A stretch of 18,768 nt of DNA from Candidatus Aenigmatarchaeota archaeon. GTDB lineage: Archaea > Aenigmatarchaeota > Aenigmatarchaeia > Aenigmatarchaeales > JACQIB01. Where the stretch lies: the NCBI GenBank assembly GCA_038999215.1, contig JAWABM010000014.1:1-18768 (forward strand), given 5' to 3'. This document shows positions 2,961-13,539 of this stretch, one piece after another (within the stretch, counting starts at the first letter, position 1; every line of letters starts with the position of its first letter). The position numbers were made by a program, and so were the translations under genes. The notes under the pieces were generated by a model, which was not told the origin of the DNA, ran no database searches, and saw nothing but the letters and a program-made list of their open reading frames with translations.

Positions 2961-3000
2961 CGTGAATTCCGCCGCTATGTGTGATATAGCGGAATTCACG
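2961..3000. repeat. 12-bp perfect inverted repeat upstream of the integrase
   Basis: CGTGAATTCCGC (2961-2972) and GCGGAATTCACG (2989-3000). Confidence 0.85.
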
Positions 3001-3065
3001 TGTGCTCAAGGACACACCAACGGAACGGTGGTCCTTTACATGGCCGCTCGAAAGAGGTGCTGAAC

Positions 3066-4307
3066 ATGGAAGAGAAGATGGACATACACAACTACGGGCA
3101 CAAGCTCGACCTTGCGATAGGAAGCGTCAAGAGGTCGGCCATGCTTGAGGAGAACAAGAAGCATATCTTGGGCTTCTACAACAGCCTTATTCTGCGGGGC
3201 GTGAGCCAGCCGTGCACCTGCAAGTACATCTACGAGATAAGGAACATGGCTCTTTGGCTGAACAAGGACCTGGACAAGACGACCAAAGAAGACATTATTT
3301 CAGTTATCCAGAAGGTTGAGACCGAGCCAGCCTATACGGAGTGCACAAAGCACAACTACAAAGTCACCCTTAAGCTGTTCTACCGTTGGCTCAAAAACAG
3401 CCCAAGAAAGCAATACCCGCCCGAAGTGGACTGGATAACGAGCGGCATCAGGAACAGCCGCCACAAATTGCCCGAAGAGCTTTGGACCGAAGAGGACGTG
3501 ATGAAGCTAATCAATGCGGCTGATAATCCGCGCGACAAGGCTCTGATAGCAAGCCTCTACGAGTCTGGTTGCAGAGTTGGGGAGCTTGCCAGCCGCAGGA
3601 TAAAGCACGCGCAGTTCGACAAGTACGGCGCGGTTGTTATTGTAGAGGGCAAGACCGGAATGCGGCGTATAAGGCTGGTCAGTTCCGTTCCCTACGTTGC
3701 CGCATGGCTGTCCAACCACCCCGACAAGGACAACCCCGATGCCCCGCTCTGGATATGCATAGGCACAAAGCACAAGGGTCAGCCCCTGACCTACAACGCC
3801 ATAGGCAGGGTATTCAGCGATAACGCCCAAAAGGCAGGCGTCAAGAAGCGGCCCAATCCGCACATGTTTCGCCACAGCCGGGCAACATTCCTAGCAAACC
3901 ACCTTACAGAAGCCCAGCTAAAGCAGATGTTCGGCTGGACGCAGGGCTCGAACATGGCCGCGATATATGTCCACATGAGCGGCAGGGATACGGACAACGC
4001 CATATTGAAGCTGAACGGCTTAGGAGGCGACGAGCGCAAGAACGAGGAAAGCGCCCTAAAGCCCGTCAAATGTCCCCGTTGCGAGTTCGTGAACGGAGCG
4101 ACCTCGAAGTTCTGCAACCGCTGTGCTGCCCCGTTGGACATACGGACAGCCCTTTCAATCGAGGAAAAGACGAACAACCTGGCGCAGAGCTTCGCGGAGG
4201 CGGTCGGGAGCGGAGCAGGACTGGCGGAGATAGCAAGGCGGCCAGAAATGAGCCAGCAGGACTTGGAGAGGTTGGCGAGGCTGGTGGTGGGATATATGAA
4301 GAGGTGA
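3066..4307 (+). CDS. tyrosine recombinase/integrase with C-terminal zinc ribbon
   Basis: Catalytic set YESGCRVGE (R), GKTG (K), HMFRH (HxxR), FGW and YVH (Y). CPRC...CNRC ribbon at the C-terminus. GAGGTG RBS just before ATG 3066. Confidence 0.93.
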   Translation: MEEKMDIHNYGHKLDLAIGSVKRSAMLEENKKHILGFYNSLILRGVSQPCTCKYIYEIRNMALWLNKDLDKTTKEDIISVIQKVETEPAYTECTKHNYKVTLKLFYRWLKNSPRKQYPPEVDWITSGIRNSRHKLPEELWTEEDVMKLINAADNPRDKALIASLYESGCRVGELASRRIKHAQFDKYGAVVIVEGKTGMRRIRLVSSVPYVAAWLSNHPDKDNPDAPLWICIGTKHKGQPLTYNAIGRVFSDNAQKAGVKKRPNPHMFRHSRATFLANHLTEAQLKQMFGWTQGSNMAAIYVHMSGRDTDNAILKLNGLGGDERKNEESALKPVKCPRCEFVNGATSKFCNRCAAPLDIRTALSIEEKTNNLAQSFAEAVGSGAGLAEIARRPEMSQQDLERLARLVVGYMKR

Positions 4308-4350: not shown

Positions 4351-5079
4351 ATGAGCAAAGCGCAACCAGTATACGATGTTCTGGACAGGATAGATGCGCC
4401 CACGGGCAAGGAAAAGGTATTCTTTCCCGGAAGCACACACCTGCCCGAAGGGAACCGTGACTATAAATCCAAGAAGTTTGTGGCCAACCTTGACCACAGG
4501 CAGATGACGCTTCTCGGGCAAGAGATATCCAAAAGGTATGGTGAGCGCTATACGCTGCTTCCGTTGCAGACGAGCTGCGACCTTGCCCACAAGGACAAAG
4601 AGTTCAAGAAAATGAATGTTGATTATTGGCTTCACAACGAGCCGGTCATTCTCGAGGTCGGCGAAATAATCGCCCATCCGATCGTCAAGGAAGTTGACGG
4701 TGAACTCAAATACGATTATACACCAAGCAAAATGATAAAGACCGAAATAAACGAGTCTGATGTTTTTGATACCCTGATGAAAGCAGGGCTTCTCAAGGAA
4801 CCCAAAAAGAAAGTCTATCGCGGTGGTATTGATTTTGAAGATGGTGAAGCTTCCGTCAGGTCGAATTGGTACTCCGACGGGGGGTGCTTCTCTGCGTATG
4901 CGTACAGGCCCTCGTACAGGGATGACCACGGGGTTGCCGCGTTCGTGAAAACGGGCGAAGCCGTTGAGAAGCCGAAAATGCGCGTGATCGCAGAGAGCGA
5001 ATATCAGGAGTTTATCAGGATAAAGAAGGAGCATGAGGCTCTTCTGAAGGAACTCGCGCCCGTGAAGAAGTATTTCTAA
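4351..5079 (+). CDS. DGR target (variable) protein, probable C-type-lectin-like fold
   Basis: Contains the VR (RGG...SVRSNWYSDGGCFSAYAYRPSYRDDHGVAAF), which matches the downstream TR and resembles the CLec-type RGG...R....P..R...G pattern. ATG 4351 preferred over GTG 4309 because of the TATA position. Confidence 0.88.
   Translation: MSKAQPVYDVLDRIDAPTGKEKVFFPGSTHLPEGNRDYKSKKFVANLDHRQMTLLGQEISKRYGERYTLLPLQTSCDLAHKDKEFKKMNVDYWLHNEPVILEVGEIIAHPIVKEVDGELKYDYTPSKMIKTEINESDVFDTLMKAGLLKEPKKKVYRGGIDFEDGEASVRSNWYSDGGCFSAYAYRPSYRDDHGVAAFVKTGEAVEKPKMRVIAESEYQEFIRIKKEHEALLKELAPVKKYF
4850..4940 (+). repeat. DGR variable repeat (VR), 91 bp
   Basis: Identical to the intron-removed TR except at 4870, 4880, 4891, 4892, 4897, 4903, 4915, 4921 and 4927, all opposite TR adenines. 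Confidence 0.95.
4950..4965 (+). promoter_or_regulatory. putative DGR homing hairpin downstream of the VR
   Basis: AACGG-(G)C-GAA-G-CCGTT stem-loop about 10 nt after the VR. No counterpart follows the TR. Confidence 0.55.
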
Positions 5080-5326
5080 GGGATAAATCCCTTAACGTTC
5101 TGAATTTGGACATGCCAAAGCTCTTTCCTTCTCCCAGACGGGGGGGGGGCAAAATTTCAATTCTCCCGGCAAAGGCCCGCGCTATACGCCTTTCCATAGA
5201 GCACGCAAAGTGCCGTTAAATACAGCGGCGACAGTTGGTAGGCTTCCGAAAACTGGAGCCGCGGTGTATCTTTGGTGGAGAGGCTACCGAAACCCTTCCG
5301 TCAGGTCGAATTGGAACTCCGACGAG

Positions 5327-5343
5327 AGCCGCAAGGTCGTCAA
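5327..5343 (+). other. TR intron 1 (17 nt), strict BHB motif
   Basis: Central helix GACG(5321-24)/CGTC(5338-41), bulges AG|A and AA|G, inner stem GCC-GCAA-GGT, outer pairs CC(5319-20)/GG(5345-46). Confidence 0.85.
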
Positions 5344-5359
5344 GGGTGCTTCAATGCGA

Positions 5360-5390
5360 ACGGTTGGAAGGAAACGTCCCGCCGGCATAA
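5360..5390 (+). other. TR intron 2 (31 nt), strict BHB motif
   Basis: Central helix ATGC(5354-57)/GCAT(5385-88), bulges GA|A and AA|A, inner stem CGGT..GGA.G-GAAA-C.TCC.GCCG, outer pairs CA(5352-53)/TG(5392-93). Confidence 0.85.
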
Positions 5391-5415
5391 ATGCGAACAG
5401 GCCCTCGAACAGGAA

Positions 5416-5448
5416 ACTTTCTTGCCGCCTTTTGGCTGGAAGCCTGAA
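5416..5448 (+). other. TR intron 3 (33 nt), relaxed BHB (bulge-helix-loop) motif
   Basis: Central helix CAGG(5410-13)/CCTG(5443-46), bulges AA|A and AA|T, inner stem CTTTC/GGAAG plus GCC-TTTT-GGC. The immediate exon-exon pair is missing. Confidence 0.8.
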
Positions 5449-5496
5449 TGACAACGGGGTTGCCGCAATAGCGCGGACTGCCGATAGGGGATATTG

Positions 5497-6570
5497 ATGA
5501 AGACCTATGGCAACCTTTACGGAAAGGTCTGCTCGTTCGAGAACCTTTTGCTGGCCTTCAGGAAGGCCAGAAAGGGCAAATCGGATAAATGGTATGTCAA
5601 AAGGTTCGAGGCGGACCTTGATAACGAATTATTGCGGTTGAAGCGCGAATTGGAAGAGCAGGCATATGAGCCGCGCCCACTGAAGAGGTTCATAATCAGG
5701 GACCCGAAAACGAGGGTCATACACGCCTCGCATTTCAGGGACCGCGTTGTCCATCATGCGCTCTGCAACGTGCTCGAGCCCATTTTTGACAGGACGTTCA
5801 TTTATGACAGCTACGCCAACAGGAAAGGGAAGGGCGGCCTGGCCGCCCAAGACAGGTTCGACGAATTCAAGCGTAAGGCTTCGCAGAACGGCCGTTTGGT
5901 GCGCGGCGCGAAGGACGACAACATGGTGGTCGGCTATGTCCTGAAGGCCGACATAAGGCATTACTTTCCGAGCGTTAACCATGAAATCCTGACGGGCATT
6001 ATAGGAAGAAAAATAAGGGATGAAAACATTCTTTGGCTGATAGGCAGGATTTTGTCGAACAACGACCCCGCCCTGCCGAAGGGCATGCCCATAGGCAACC
6101 AGACCAGCCAGTTCTTCGCAAACGTCTACCTGAACGAGCTTGACTACTTCGTGAAGCATGTGCTGAAGGCGAGGTTCTATTTGCGGTATGTTGACGACTT
6201 TGTGATATTGGACAGGTCGGAAGCAAAACTCATGCTGTTCAGGAGCGAGATAAACGGATTCCTGAAACACGCCCTGAAGCTGGAACTGCACGAGGAAAAA
6301 TCGCAGGTCTATCCTTTGCACAAGGGAATATCGCTGCTCGGCTTCAGGATGTTCTACCATTACAGGGTTCCTAAAAGAAGGAACCTGCTGAAGCTGGAAA
6401 AGCGGATGTTGAAACTCAAACGTTTGTATGAATCGGGCGAAGTTTCCGCCGAAGAGGTTGCGAAATGCCTTGAAGGTTGGCTGGCATATGCGAAGCAGGG
6501 CGACACTTTCAAATTAAGAAAAACGCTCGTTGAAAAATATGGCAACATGTTCAGTATTACATTTTCTTAA
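5497..6570 (+). CDS. DGR-type reverse transcriptase
   Basis: Motifs DPKTRVI..SHFRDRVVHHAL, DSYANRKGKG, KADIRHYFPSVNH, GMPIGNQTSQFFANVYLNELD and RYVDDF. About 357 aa with no maturase or endonuclease domain. Adjacent to a TR/VR pair. Confidence 0.95.
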   Translation: MKTYGNLYGKVCSFENLLLAFRKARKGKSDKWYVKRFEADLDNELLRLKRELEEQAYEPRPLKRFIIRDPKTRVIHASHFRDRVVHHALCNVLEPIFDRTFIYDSYANRKGKGGLAAQDRFDEFKRKASQNGRLVRGAKDDNMVVGYVLKADIRHYFPSVNHEILTGIIGRKIRDENILWLIGRILSNNDPALPKGMPIGNQTSQFFANVYLNELDYFVKHVLKARFYLRYVDDFVILDRSEAKLMLFRSEINGFLKHALKLELHEEKSQVYPLHKGISLLGFRMFYHYRVPKRRNLLKLEKRMLKLKRLYESGEVSAEEVAKCLEGWLAYAKQGDTFKLRKTLVEKYGNMFSITFS

Positions 6571-6858: not shown

Positions 6859-7977
6859 TCACGCGCCCATCGCGCCGTAAGCAAGGCCCGCGGCGGTCGA
6901 GTAAAGGATGACCAGCAGAACATAGACGGCCGTCTTTTTCGTGCCCAGTATTTTTCTTATGACCAGCATGTTCGGCAGGCTCAGGCTTGGCCCTGCTAGG
7001 AGCAGCGCCAACGCAGGCCCGCCTGCCATGCCCTTCAACATCAGTGCCTGCACTATCGGTATCTCGGTCAGCGTGGAAAAGTACATGAATGCCCCGAACA
7101 CCGAGGCTATGAGGTTGCCTGCCACGTCGTTGCGTCCGACCGTGCTCTCTATCAGCGCCTGCGGGAGAAGCGGCATAATGAAGCCGGCTATGAAGACCCC
7201 GATGAATAGCAGCGGCAGCAGGACCTTTGCGAAGCTCCATGTCTCCCCGAGCCAGGCCTTGGTGGCGTGGTCCCTGAACTTGAACAGCACTGTGCCTATG
7301 ACAACCAGCGTGAACGCGACCATGAGCGAGTATTTGAGGAACATGCCTATCTGCAGCCCGTTCACGACAAGTATGCCCACAAGGGAGGCAAAAAACACGG
7401 CAAGCGCGGCATTTGAAATTTTTGATTCCTCGGTCTCCTGAACGACAATTTTTTCCTTGTCCGGCTTTTCCCTGAAAATCATCTGCATGCTCAGGCCTGC
7501 GATTATCGACAGGACGATTGCGCTGACCGCCCTTGCAAGCCCGAGCCCCGCCCCGAGGACCGAGAACGTGAGGAATATGGCTGCTATGTTTATCGCTGGT
7601 CCCGCGAAAAGCAGCGTCACTGCGGGCCCCAGCCCAGCCCCTCTTTTCCTTATGCCCGCGAACAGCGGCAGTATGGTGCACGAGCACACTGCAAGTATCG
7701 CCCCCGCGACCGATGCCACGCCGTAGGAAACCCATTTGTTCGCCTCATGACCGAGGTATTTCATCACCCTTTCCTTCCGTATGAAAACGGATATAGCGCC
7801 GGCAATGAACAGCGCTGGCACCAGGCAGGTCAGCACGTGCTGCTTCGCGTATTCGCCAAGGAGGCCTATGCCGCTGAGGACGGACGCCTCGAACCATGCG
7901 CTGCCCTGCGGGACAAAATAGAACACGGCAAACACGAGGGCTATCCCGAACAGCAGCATCCGGTCGTTTTTATCCAT
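6859..7977 (-). CDS. DUF318/ArsP-family permease (organoarsenical efflux-like)
   Basis: Multi-TM protein with CLVPALFIAGAI, AVCSCTILPLFAGI, GPAINI and MYFSTLTEIP...LLAGPSLSLP motifs, in an ArsR operon. Confidence 0.82.
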   Translation of the reverse strand: MDKNDRMLLFGIALVFAVFYFVPQGSAWFEASVLSGIGLLGEYAKQHVLTCLVPALFIAGAISVFIRKERVMKYLGHEANKWVSYGVASVAGAILAVCSCTILPLFAGIRKRGAGLGPAVTLLFAGPAINIAAIFLTFSVLGAGLGLARAVSAIVLSIIAGLSMQMIFREKPDKEKIVVQETEESKISNAALAVFFASLVGILVVNGLQIGMFLKYSLMVAFTLVVIGTVLFKFRDHATKAWLGETWSFAKVLLPLLFIGVFIAGFIMPLLPQALIESTVGRNDVAGNLIASVFGAFMYFSTLTEIPIVQALMLKGMAGGPALALLLAGPSLSLPNMLVIRKILGTKKTAVYVLLVILYSTAAGLAYGAMGA

Positions 7978-7978
7978 A

Positions 7979-8689
7979 TTACAGCACCATTACTCCGATA
8001 TAGTATGCTCCTATAATCACGAACATTATTCCGACGATCTTCCTCATCCATGCTTCAAGTGTCTGCACCTTATTCGTAATTACACCAAGCTTATTTACGC
8101 TTTTTACCAAAATTATTGAAAATATTATCACGGGCAGACCTGTTGCAAACGCAAATACGGATGGTATCAACAATCCGTCACCGGCAGCTATTGCAATTGG
8201 TATCATCATGCCAAAGAACAAAACGGCGCTGAACGGACAGAACGCAAGGGCGAAAATGACACCGAGCAAAAATGCCCCGATAAATCCTTTGTTTGCAAGG
8301 CGTTCCTTTAACTTGTTTATTTTTTCACTGCCTTTTATGATATTTAATTTTATTAAATCCAGCATCAGAATTCCGGCAATGATTAGGAACGGCCCTAATA
8401 ATCTTTCCCCGTATCTTTGCAAAAACAATGATATTGTTTGTGTCTGGATTCCGATGTAAACAATAAGCGACGCTAATCCGACATAAGTAAACATCCTTCC
8501 AAGCGTATAGATAAATCCGACCGATATCGTATGCCTGCTGTTATCAATTTTTTTGCTGGTGTATGCTATTGCTGTTATGTTCGTGGCCAAGGGGCACGGG
8601 CTGATAGCTGTCATCAATCCTATGAAAAATGCGGCAACTACGGCTATGTTGCTTGCTCCCATCGCTTCCATGAAGGCCATTATGTCCAT
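7979..8689 (-). CDS. ArsG-like / DsbD_2 (CcdA-type) membrane thiol transporter
   Basis: GLMTAISPCPLATNITAI and ALAFCPFSAVLFFG motifs, about 6 TM helices. Confidence 0.8.
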   Translation of the reverse strand: MDIMAFMEAMGASNIAVVAAFFIGLMTAISPCPLATNITAIAYTSKKIDNSRHTISVGFIYTLGRMFTYVGLASLIVYIGIQTQTISLFLQRYGERLLGPFLIIAGILMLDLIKLNIIKGSEKINKLKERLANKGFIGAFLLGVIFALAFCPFSAVLFFGMMIPIAIAAGDGLLIPSVFAFATGLPVIIFSIILVKSVNKLGVITNKVQTLEAWMRKIVGIMFVIIGAYYIGVMVL

Positions 8690-8692
8690 TTT

Positions 8693-9163
8693 TTACACCT
8701 GCAATTTACTTTCAATTACGCTTTTCAGGTAATTCATGTAGTCCTGTTTGTTGTTGATTTTATACCAGACATTTATGTTCTGTTCGGCGGAAAAGCTGCC
8801 GTCCTTATGGTAGCTGCCTATCCACAATGAAGCGCCCGTTACGCCGTATTTATTCACGAGTTCATAATTTTCTGAGAGCTCCCCGTTGACATGCCGAAAG
8901 CTTATTTTTCCTGATTTTAGCTCATCTTTAAAGTATGTATTAACGGTCTCTTCGGCGTAGTCCCCGACCGTTATGCAGGCATAGCATTGATGAGTCCCGT
9001 GAAAATGAATGACTTCCAGTTTTTCAATTTCATCATGCTGCCCTGCGGCAGCAGACCCGGAAACCGAACCGCTTTCGTTTTTTGTGCACCCGGACACCAG
9101 CAGCACTGAAAACAGCAGTGCAAAAATCACGGTTTTTTGTCCGATTCTCATTCTCAAAGCCAC
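8693..9163 (-). CDS. ArsF-like exported thioredoxin-fold lipoprotein (start may be ATG 9151)
   Basis: Signal peptide with lipobox-like LVSGC, then IHFHGTHQCYACITV (CxxC). Directly upstream of the ArsG-like gene. Confidence 0.75.
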   Translation of the reverse strand: MALRMRIGQKTVIFALLFSVLLVSGCTKNESGSVSGSAAAGQHDEIEKLEVIHFHGTHQCYACITVGDYAEETVNTYFKDELKSGKISFRHVNGELSENYELVNKYGVTGASLWIGSYHKDGSFSAEQNINVWYKINNKQDYMNYLKSVIESKLQV

Positions 9164-9381
9164 GTCCTTATCTCTTCCGCGTCGGGAACCCTGCCGTACG
9201 CCTTCACTTTCCCGTCGATGACTATCGCGGGCGTGGCCATTATTCCGCGGTTCACTATCTCGGTTATGTCCGTGACCTTGACTATTTCGGCCTTTTTGCC
9301 TGCAGCTTCCATGGCCTTCCTTGCGTTCGCCTCAAGCTGCCTGCACTTCGGGCAGCCTGAACCCAGAATTTCTATTTTCAT
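9154..9381 (-). CDS. small redox-active disulfide protein (MTH895/ArsE-like thioredoxin family)
   Basis: MKIEILGSGCPKC...GIMATPAIVIDGKVKAYGRVP. Confidence 0.9.
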   Translation of the reverse strand: MKIEILGSGCPKCRQLEANARKAMEAAGKKAEIVKVTDITEIVNRGIMATPAIVIDGKVKAYGRVPDAEEIRTWL

Positions 9382-9390
9382 TTTATCGCC

Positions 9391-10512
9391 TCACACCATT
9401 CCGAGGGCCACTATCGCGCCCAGCGCTATCATCACTATTCCCGTGATGAGGTGCAGCAGCCTGATGTTTTTCTCCTTCCATTCGGTCATCTTTTCCGTGC
9501 TTGACAGGCCGAAATACATGAGCAGCGTTATCGCGAGCAGCGGCACCACGAAGAACACGTTGTAAAGCAGGAGTATGGGGACCGCCGCCATTGCGGTCGC
9601 CCTTTCGGCGAGCAGCCCGAGAATGAAGATGTACGGCCCGCCAGTGCAGGGCAGCTCGAAAAGGCAAACCACGAAGCCCATCAGGAAAGCGCCGAGCGGC
9701 GACGTCACTTTTCCGAGCATTCCCTTCAATGCCGGCCTCCAGCTGCGCGGTATCTCCATCACGAACCCGCCACCCCCGTACCAGAAGTAATCCTTGATGT
9801 TGGCCAATCCGATGACAATTGCCAGCACGCCTATGAACCTGTAAAACAGATAGGAAAGGCCCGACACCTGCAGCGCGGAAAGCAGGCCCATGCCGAAAAG
9901 GAAGTAGCTTATGTATATCGAGGCTGTGAACGCCAGCCCTGCTTTGAGTGCCCTTGTCCTGTCGCCTGCCGCCAGCAGCGCGGTCAGGAGTATGAGGAGA
10001 ACGGCTATTGCGCACGGATTTATGGAGTCGACGAGCGCCGCCCCTATCACCGTGATTATGGAAAGCGAGCCGAGCGCCTCCATCGGGGAGGCAGCGCCTG
10101 AAGTTCCTGTTGCCTCGATGCCGTTCGGCGCAGGGCACGCCGCGCCGCGGTTTTTCATTATCGCGTCTTCAAGGCCCGCTATTATGGGCGTGTCGCCGAC
10201 CATGTATCGGTCCGAAATGAAGGCCGCAGGAACGCCCCTTTCATCGTTAGGAACGCCGTAGGCGCCGAAATACTCGTTCAGTAGTACGGCATTCGTCCTG
10301 TTCCTGTATATTTCGAACCTGTGTATTTCGACGCCTTCGTACGCCGATTCCACATTGTCGATGAACGGCTCCACCCTTGCGCAGTGCGGGCAGCCATCCC
10401 CGTAAAAGAAATAAACGCACGTCGCGCCTGGCGCTTCCTGCGCTTGCGCCGCGCCCGGGACAACCGCCAGGAAAAGCGGAACCAGCAGAATCAGGAAAAG
10501 CTTCGCCTTCAT
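9391..10512 (-). CDS. glutaredoxin/thioredoxin domain fused to a CcdA/DsbD-type membrane domain
   Basis: Signal peptide from MKAKLF (ATG 10512, overlapping the arsR stop), FFYGDGCPHC, and membrane domain with DSINPCA and ELPCTGGPY. Confidence 0.85.
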   Translation of the reverse strand: MKAKLFLILLVPLFLAVVPGAAQAQEAPGATCVYFFYGDGCPHCARVEPFIDNVESAYEGVEIHRFEIYRNRTNAVLLNEYFGAYGVPNDERGVPAAFISDRYMVGDTPIIAGLEDAIMKNRGAACPAPNGIEATGTSGAASPMEALGSLSIITVIGAALVDSINPCAIAVLLILLTALLAAGDRTRALKAGLAFTASIYISYFLFGMGLLSALQVSGLSYLFYRFIGVLAIVIGLANIKDYFWYGGGGFVMEIPRSWRPALKGMLGKVTSPLGAFLMGFVVCLFELPCTGGPYIFILGLLAERATAMAAVPILLLYNVFFVVPLLAITLLMYFGLSSTEKMTEWKEKNIRLLHLITGIVMIALGAIVALGMV

Positions 10513-10811
10513 TTCCTTCCCCCCATGCAGCACGACCTTTTCAGTATTTTGCCTTTAGGGTTGCCAAGCGCCTTGAACATATCGCACACGCGGCGGTCGG
10601 CTATGCTGTAAAACACCTTCTTGCCCTCCCTGCGCGGTTTCACGATTCCCGCCTTTTCGAGCAGGGAAAGCTGTACGGAGACCGTTGACTGCGTCCTTCC
10701 GACATGCGGAAATATCTCGCAAACGCATTTTTCCCCGCCAAGCAGGAATTCCAGCATTTTCATCCTCGTCTCGTCAGCCATGGCCTTCAGGAAAACGATG
10801 CCGTTCTTCAT
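10509..10811 (-). CDS. arsR: ArsR/SmtB-family transcriptional repressor
   Basis: KAMADETR...EKCVCEI...TQSTVSVQLSLLEKAGIV...REGKKVFYSI helix-turn-helix. Start at ATG 10811, just downstream of the TATA box and operator. Confidence 0.88.
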   Translation of the reverse strand: MKNGIVFLKAMADETRMKMLEFLLGGEKCVCEIFPHVGRTQSTVSVQLSLLEKAGIVKPRREGKKVFYSIADRRVCDMFKALGNPKGKILKRSCCMGGRK

Positions 10812-10842
10812 CAAAACATATTGATGAATATCAATATTTAAA
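10810..10842 (-). promoter_or_regulatory. ArsR operator and TATA box
   Basis: ATCAA-AACATA-TTGAT (10810-10825) overlaps ATATTGAT-GAAT-ATCAATAT (10818-10837). TTTAAATA on the minus strand at 10835-10842. Confidence 0.75.
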
Positions 10843-10963
10843 GCTTGCCTAACGATTGCCTTGCCATACGCATGCGATAGCAATATATTCAACCTCGCAC
10901 AATAATGTAAAAGAGACGGTCAAAATCAAGGGAAATCTTCTCTGATTGAACGGGATGGCCCTG

Positions 10964-13417: not shown

Positions 13418-13539
13418 GCGGGAGTGGCCAAGCCTGGTCCAAGGCGCAGGACTCAAGCCATGCTTGAGTTTCGAGCGAAAGCTGTGAGAGATCCTGTGGG
13501 TTAGTCCCATCGCAGGTTCGAATCCTGCCTCCCGCACCA
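13418..13539 (+). tRNA. tRNA-Leu(CAA) with 33-nt intron (13458-13490) at 37/38
   Basis: Acceptor GCGGGAG/CTCCCGC plus ACCA, anticodon stem CAGGA/TCCTG. BHB helix CTCA/TGAG with bulges AG|C and AG|A. Variable arm TGGG-TTAGT-CCCA, T-loop TTCGAAT. Confidence 0.94.

Follow-up and report, generated by a model that had tools for sequence, protein, structure and literature searches.

A candidate splicing-dependent diversity-generating retroelement in Aenigmatarchaeota, with a template repeat that appears to be split by tRNA-type introns

In the diversity-generating retroelements (DGRs) described from DPANN archaea and Nanoarchaeota (Paul et al. 2015, PMC4372165; the CPR/DPANN set of Wu et al. 2018, PMC5758913), a target gene carrying the variable repeat (VR) precedes the template repeat (TR) and the reverse transcriptase (RT) gene, the two repeats differ specifically at adenines, the target has a CLec fold, a hairpin follows the VR within the gene and the RT bears the SQ motif, defined for DGR RTs as (I/V/L)GxxxSQ (PMC3521204). 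The available text of both studies treats the TR as contiguous; the words 'insertion' and 'indel' are absent from the available main text of PMC4372165, and Wu et al. ascribe TR/VR length differences to AAC slippage (PMC5758913). Introns in the TR go unmentioned in the available text of Roux et al. 2021 (PMC8144416) and of Paul and Eren 2022 (PMC8867640). The only precedent that we found is engineered: in the Avd-requiring DGR of BPP-1, TR RNA spliced by an artificial, self-splicing td group I intron was reverse-transcribed and mutagenized (Naorem et al. 2017, PMC5703328). The other relevant systems are the archaeal bulge–helix–bulge (BHB) introns of pre-tRNA, pre-rRNA and rare mRNAs (PMC6379350, PMC7714728), in which 3-nt bulges flank a 4-bp helix (PMC6379350) and the splicing endonuclease EndA breaks the phosphate of the third bulge base (PMC12397907). 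EndA does cleave non-tRNA BHB substrates, and those described there beyond tRNA and rRNA are a few mRNAs (PMC7714728).

The locus described here shares the gene order, adenine-specific differences, target fold, post-VR hairpin and RT motif of the DPANN DGRs, but three candidate introns divide its TR into four exons. It resembles the engineered BPP-1 system in that a spliced TR RNA would serve as the mutagenic RT template, whereas its introns are natural, 17–33 nt long and probably spliced by protein, and no Avd was found. With archaeal BHB introns it shares the 4-bp helix, the 3-nt bulge, the cut site, the occurrence of several short hairpin introns per RNA and a two-subunit host EndA with a DPANN L3-like loop; unlike known BHB substrates, the RNA in question is a retroelement template. 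The literature searched, which left out most subscription papers, contained no account of a natural DGR with introns in its TR, and the novelty claimed for the split TR by an earlier sequence-only reading of this DNA held to that extent.

The window, meaning the whole 18,768-nt stretch of DNA analyzed, contains an intact-looking DPANN DGR with a CLec-fold target, an SQ-motif RT and an Rfam RT-16 RNA. On the + strand the order is tRNA cluster, tyrosine recombinase, target gene, RT-16 RNA, TR, short spacer and RT, with the following features outside the TR:

4351–5079, + strand: target gene, 242 aa, predicted CLec fold and C-terminal helix, VR near the 3′ end
4850–4945, + strand: VR, without introns, including an IMH-like G-rich end (from the TR/VR alignment)
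4950–4965, + strand: small hairpin inside the target gene, just 3′ of the VR (5-bp stem in the DNA fold)
5083–5149, + strand: putative promoter and leader (TATA-like box 5083–5088, ATG at 5112, pyrimidine stretch, G10 run 5140–5149)
5156–5186, + strand: 5′ strand of a predicted long-range helix that pairs with the post-TR spacer and loops the TR out
5165–5292, + strand: Rfam RT-16 structured RNA directly 5′ of the TR (RF03019, 67.4 bits against a cut-off of 50)
5467–5498, + strand: spacer, 3′ strand of the predicted long-range helix, overlapping the RT ribosome-binding region
5497–6570, + strand: DGR-type RT, 357 aa, uninterrupted, with IGNQTSQ (SQ motif) and YVDD

The target protein has no Pfam or NCBIfam match. 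Its AF2 model, built from 17 sequences, has a pLDDT of 89, and in a wide structure search most of the 50 matches listed were titled as C-type lectin-domain proteins; the best Z was a middling 8.5, with the DGR targets TvpA (2y3c) and TaqVP (5vf4) at 7.2 and 7.0, and Foldseek returned nothing at E ≤ 0.001 for the same model. The VR corresponds to about residues 167–198 of the 242-aa target, in the coding frame, and a single VR copy and a single RT were found in the 571-kb assembly. By likeness to PMC4372165 (a G-rich 3′ end and differences at A), we assign IMH-like and IMH*-like ends and the post-VR hairpin, whose loop can close to a GAA triloop resembling the GRA hairpins known from DUSEL4 DGRs (PMC4372165).

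Avd (PF05635, PF22296) was not found in this 88% complete, 571-kb assembly, nor was there an ORF for it between the target and the RT, where the RT-16 RNA occupies its place. RT-16 was found in 11 of 16 related loci scanned and may be the scaffold of Avd-less DPANN DGRs. The duplex between 5156–5186 and 5467–5498 has a z of −4.5 and is present in both the MFE and centroid structures; across the family, the flank–spacer duplex falls below z = −3 in 61 of 104 loci, and the pairing sequences differ between relatives. This predicted duplex resembles the avd:Sp duplex around the Bordetella TR (10.1101/2023.10.23.563531). The RT-16 5′ end seems to pair with the post-TR spacer instead of forming the local hairpin of the Rfam model.

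The TR itself is longer than the VR by three inserts, giving the following division:

5295–5326, + strand: TR exon 1 (32 nt)
5327–5343, + strand: candidate intron 1 (17 nt; central helix GACG/CGTC, 3-bp intron stem, GNRA loop, 2-bp outer helix)
5344–5359, + strand: TR exon 2 (16 nt)
5360–5390, + strand: candidate intron 2 (31 nt; central helix ATGC/GCAT, 4-bp intron stem, 2-bp outer helix)
5391–5415, + strand: TR exon 3 (25 nt)
5416–5448, + strand: candidate intron 3 (33 nt; central helix CAGG/CCTG, 5-bp intron stem, outer helix absent)
5449–5471, + strand: TR exon 4, with the IMH*-like end

Removing inserts of 17, 31 and 33 nt (5327–5343, 5360–5390 and 5416–5448) from the 172-nt TR at 5295–5466 leaves 91 nt that align gaplessly with the VR at 4850–4940, with nine mismatches, all nine at TR adenines. 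They fall at joined-TR positions 21 and 31 (exon 1), 42, 43 and 48 (exon 2), 54, 66 and 72 (exon 3) and 78 (exon 4), affecting all four exons; adenines make up 22 of the 91 positions, and by hand calculation the chance of nine out of nine mismatches at A is (22/91)^9, or about 3e-6. The sequence-only reading had claimed both the three insertions and the adenine-restricted mismatches, and the two claims hold, also under an unbiased gapped aligner with strict scoring and no coordinates supplied, which we used for TR/VR pairs throughout. The aligner recovered the 17-, 31- and 33-nt inserts and extended the pair to TR 5471 and VR 4945 (96 columns, 12 mismatches at A and 0 others). From this single locus the exact placement of the inserts is ambiguous by a few nucleotides, with a 3-nt junction microhomology at intron 3; family data fix the cut register. 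An assembly artifact as the source of the inserts is ruled out by a locus in another genome (L004, RT 83% identical), whose inserts agree in both length (17, 31 and 33 nt) and site, and by a DNA contig from run X3 of another study, which covers the TR including all three inserts.

Each of the three central helices, which join positions −6 to −3 of the 5′ exon to positions −6 to −3 of the intron, has four of four Watson–Crick pairs and a 3-nt bulge before the intron stem, as the BHB geometry claimed earlier would have it. That claim was nonetheless slightly overstated, the exon–exon (outer) helices that close the second bulge being weak (2, 2 and 0 bp for introns 1, 2 and 3), and we therefore describe the motifs as relaxed and not as strict BHB. 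Such weak outer helices fit the relaxed motifs that alpha-beta EndAs cut (PMC6379350); the exon–exon helix is nearly absent here because the exon sequence has to code for protein. A strict motif that was derived post hoc from the three introns matches 151 times in 1.14 million nt of host genome (both strands), a background rate of 0.023 per 172 nt.

A gapped TR/VR search beside archaeal DGR RTs, which the sequence-only reading had proposed, was run on at least 279 RT loci gathered from genomes, metagenomes and viral contigs; these are the best rows of each scan and thus a sample. It yielded 187 TR/VR pairs, and 91 of 279 RT loci had no pair. Left out of the counts were the window's own locus (L032), L033 (same TR and VR as L004), L178 (identical to L089), L098 (an 89-nt tail, falsely extended into the RT gene) and L117 (no TR/VR pair); for L160 the second alignment was taken. 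Inserts present only in the TR, 17–69 nt long, occurred in 34 of the 187 sampled pairs: 21 of 69 archaeal-labeled genome loci and 13 of 38 metagenome loci, with none among 66 viral and 14 bacterial ones. The position of intron 3 is the commonest intron site across the family.

Insert length is read from the VR and is independent of structure, and a BHB motif requires the strands of its 4-bp helix to lie exactly one insert length apart. At that offset, a complete exon–intron helix was present in 46 of 54 unique inserts, as against 1–13 at 12 other offsets and a mean of 6.9 ± 2.1 (maximum, 14) in 1,000 shuffles; the central helix of the other eight had three of four pairs. As the eps scan of that test and the junction counts are partly circular, the non-circular test is to place the helix by structure alone. 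With the helix so placed, 45 of 46 inserts have a 3-nt 5′ bulge, the intron stem averages 4.8 bp at a bulge size of 3 and under 0.9 at other sizes, and for 43 of 46 the best-fitting VR junction lies behind the second base of the bulge (logL −361.9, against −431.2 and −443.6 for the neighboring positions; margin, 69). Outer helices are weak throughout, at 0–2 bp across the 55 inserts. In 53 of 54 the intron begins with A, a count that is again partly circular.

These data bear on a mechanism without a nuclease, in which the TR stays unspliced and the inserts are structural elements, stable hairpins that the RT passes over without copying. Each insert does contain a hairpin, intron 3 has its 3-nt junction microhomology, and DGR RTs slip at AAC repeats to give 3–9-nt indels (in our data and in PMC5758913). 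Simple hairpin geometry, however, would have the insert ends pairing with each other, which they do in only 7 of 54, whereas the conserved exon–intron helix one insert length apart, the 3-nt bulge and the 2-nt cut offset constitute the EndA rule, and none of 80 bacterial or viral pairs has an insert. We regard hairpin skipping as very unlikely.

Covariation analysis, another check suggested by the earlier reading, showed compensatory changes in homologous central helices at all three sites: G-C in 4 and A-T in 3 loci at pair 1 of site 1, T-A in 6 and C-G in 4 at pair 2 of site 2, and T-A in 14, A-T in 8 and G-C in 4 at pair 2 of site 3. The loci are kin, so helix-change and insert counts overstate the number of independent events. 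For a related TR in run X3, seven intron substitutions are among the 34 of 41 differences listed, none of them in a central helix. By all of these sequence tests, the TR is split by relaxed BHB introns. Folding models back the motifs only partly and do not predict them to be thermodynamically dominant: the central-helix probability exceeds 0.5 in 26 of 54 local folds; in the full precursor it is 0.78, 0.06 and 0.52 for introns 1, 2 and 3; and the whole RNA reaches only z = −1.7 against shuffles. After removal of intron 1, the model gives 0.59 for the intron 2 helix and 0.93 for that of intron 3.

The host genome (G000) encodes the enzymes that splicing would call for, with a pair of neighboring endA genes (162 and 179 aa; alpha subunit at G000:C9, L001:1264-1800) and an rtcB gene; endA is likewise present in five of five tested relatives with intron-bearing DGRs. 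Among solved structures, the host EndA is closest to 3iey_A, which we take to be the Nanoarchaeum EndA alpha subunit, and has the same loop before the catalytic His. The L3 loop of DPANN EndA has been described (PMC5829648). The host alpha subunit keeps the catalytic Tyr and His and has Ala at the catalytic Lys column, as do all six alpha subunits compared (the host and five relatives, L284-L288), in each case beside a Lys-rich, L3-like loop. A Lys-to-Ala change inactivates other EndAs (PMC12397907); the host carries six tRNAs with canonical BHB introns, which suggests that its EndA still works, and BHB tRNA introns persist in the genomes of this group. Two intron-bearing tRNAs in the window are missed by default ARAGORN, one at 2807–2927 with a 43-nt canonical BHB intron and an anticodon read as Glu-TTC, and one at 13418–13539 (Leu-CAA) with a 33-nt canonical BHB intron. 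The DGR inserts typically begin with A, a feature in which host tRNA introns differ, and an origin of the inserts from host tRNA introns was considered and set aside, no similarity having been found.

The explanation that we favor, with considerable confidence, is that host EndA cuts the TR RNA, a ligase joins the exons and the RT copies the spliced product, as the sequence-only reading had proposed; in its support stand the cut register, helix covariation, the flow of changes from TR to VR described below, the restriction of inserts to archaeal-type sources and the presence of host EndA and RtcB. A precursor RNA would carry the leader, the RT-16 scaffold, the four exons with their three mini-introns and the spacer on one transcript, the promoter role of the TATA-like box at 5083–5088 being likewise putative. 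The two-subunit, alpha-beta EndA would recognize each BHB-like motif and cut after the second bulge base; the register comes from comparison across loci, and EndA is the probable enzyme. A host ligase, most likely RtcB, would join the exons, and the introns may be removed in order, as hinted by the folding model in which, once intron 1 is gone, the helices of the other two become free to form. The DGR RT, erring at adenines, would then copy the 91–96-nt spliced template into a cDNA that replaces the VR of the lectin-fold target gene; the adenine-specific pattern is observed, and the copying and replacement steps would follow the established DGR mechanism. Reverse transcription and mutagenesis of spliced TR RNA have a counterpart in the engineered BPP-1 DGR (PMC5703328). 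In the RNA run X4, a single short contig matched a conserved RT motif and none matched the TR, which speaks neither for nor against splicing; runs X1 and X2 yielded small pieces. Very probably, then, the template RNA must be spliced by tRNA-splicing enzymes before use.

A variant of this scheme dispenses with the ligase: EndA would excise the introns, the exons would stay unligated and the RT would switch templates across the nicks while the RNP holds the RNA together. Because a switch that leaves one exon at its 5′ end and resumes at the 3′ end of the exon before it produces the same VR junctions as splicing, the helix-register and junction tests cannot separate the two. Group II-like RTs do switch templates at RNA ends, and the weak outer helices would hold exon ends poorly for a ligase. 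Yet template switching usually leaves added or lost bases, and across 55 junction/VR pairs we counted zero non-A mismatches or indels (a partly circular count); the host has RtcB, and three jumps would be needed over exons of 16–32 nt. We consider switching at nicks unlikely and continue with ligation as the preferred reading.

Relationships among the loci were drawn from a quick RT tree of 115 rows. The RT of the window falls in a group of 16 loci with moderate support (SH-aLRT 88), all 16 of which have one to three inserts, whereas loci with a single insert are scattered among Nanoarchaeota and Woesearchaeota loci with insert-free neighbors. Two further loci, L040 (three inserts, RT 43% identical) and L200, are placed apart. 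This distribution suggests that the introns are old and inherited, with losses and more than one gain; in the proposed scheme, they would be vertically kept and at times precisely lost. The inserts of L040 are probably an independent gain. In that locus (G016, TR at about 914–1196 on the RT strand), the BHB inserts are 60, 36 and 69 nt long, an ORF lies between the TR and the RT, and the VR sequence is FGE-like. Loci labeled 'Methanosarcinales' (for example, L046 and L078) have RTs that sit among DPANN RTs on the tree, some with an intron; either mislabeling or transfer of the elements may account for this. A pattern scan with the 3′ junction of intron 2 across 301 genomes of the class yielded no independent hold-out set: 19 of 20 new loci had no RT or VR nearby and are attributed to chance, and the remaining one was L008 again.

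The same inserts can be recognized in published elements. Two DGRs with archaeal-type TRs in the available supplement of Wu et al. (t053 and t054) carry the same 3′ insert, unrecognized there: in their alignments the TR ends at the 5′ splice site, and everything beyond it, intron and final exon alike, is shown as unalignable. L048, from AAA011-G17, a genome in Paul et al. 2015, has the same 3′ insert as an 18-nt intron.

If the inserts had entered a dead or dying DGR, or had been removed at the DNA level, the VR would stem from an older, intron-free TR. Among six three-intron loci, any non-A difference between two TRs recurs in the main VR of the locus concerned, and differences of this kind affect each of the four exons. 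Because each VR follows non-A changes in its own TR, copying would have gone on after intron gain, and because cDNA copying begins at the TR 3′ end, as established for BPP-1 (PMC5703328), the exon 1 changes would have had to cross three intron sites. We infer past activity after intron gain from these comparisons. Two non-A mismatches in one VR of L004, and degeneracy of exon 1 in another, are what a decaying element might show. Against decay, the RT is intact, the helices covary, the intron sites are common to the 16-locus RT clade with its diverged TRs, and every main VR tracks the TR of its own locus through the four exons. An inactive source for the VR is largely refuted, and we judge it highly improbable. 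No retained introns were found in the VRs of 153 contiguous pairs, two motif matches being long-range chance. In L004 (L004:3297-5552), one TR serves three tandem target genes, and the exon 1 bases of the second VR match the TR of the window and not its own; this VR is a trace of an older, partial conversion.

Intron 2 is absent from two relatives. Its absence from L124 (L124:812-951) is precise, and this locus has four differences within 16 nt of the intron 2 junction relative to L034 or the window, all of them adenine losses. This single locus looks like a mutagenized, intron-free copy that was written back into the TR from cDNA or a VR. L126 also lacks intron 2 but has no adenine scars.

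Whether the introns amount to a functional layer (a splicing gate, a template shield and recurrent gain and loss) or are passengers is a further matter, and the functional reading is one that we offer tentatively and with some doubt. If it were true, hypermutation would depend on host tRNA-splicing activity; copying starts at the TR 3′ end, the commonest intron lies 16–37 nt from it, and an unspliced RNA would therefore be blocked immediately. Homology between TR and VR and between TR and cDNA would be broken into 16–32-nt pieces, and these breaks would keep mutated copies of the template from overwriting it. Intron loss by write-back would leave adenine scars, as in L124. More than one gain would be expected from the separate positions of L040 and L200 on the RT tree, and DGR templates would therefore be a recurring landing site and a traceable model for the birth and loss of BHB introns.

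Should splicing be confirmed as the route, a retroelement template would need host tRNA-type splicing before reverse transcription, an extra RNA-maturation step in the DGR cycle and one that would surprise specialists in both DGRs and archaeal splicing. The introns would form a new multi-intron, non-tRNA class of EndA substrates. Published archaeal DGR boundaries would be wrong where the TR was cut at an intron, and finders that use ungapped TR/VR matches would miss or truncate many DPANN DGRs (34 of 107 archaeal-labeled or metagenomic pairs in our sample). The VR would be a genomic record of spliced RNA, and splice sites of uncultured archaea would therefore be readable from DNA. As the system is small (precursor RNA, EndA, RtcB and RT), full reconstitution is feasible, and BHB intron gain, loss and function would become testable.

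Several smaller features of the locus were also recorded. The unspliced TR is an open frame (5210–5497) in the VR frame, and its stop overlaps the RT start; in L036 this frame continues into the RT, and the feature is not kept in all relatives. Selection for in-frame introns was considered and rejected: insert length is a multiple of 3 in 34 of 54, yet this is not obligatory, since many relatives show stops or net frameshifts. A G-run with an upstream ATG occurs in 5 of 106 loci, every one in the subclade of the window, with G6–G10 stretches whose length varies in contigs of runs X2 and X3; the short ORFs of the leader end in Gly-Gly-Gly in all five. An integrative element at the tRNA-Glu gene was likewise rejected, no duplicated tRNA end having been found near the DGR. 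Between the tRNA cluster and the DGR, window positions 3000–4307 encode a XerA-like tyrosine recombinase with a Cys-rich C-terminal segment. The neighborhood of L004 differs from that of the window, in which, right after the RT, positions 6859–10892 encode an ArsP-like permease and DsbD-like membrane proteins, along with ORFs labeled by sequence reading as thioredoxin-like and as an ArsR-like regulator.
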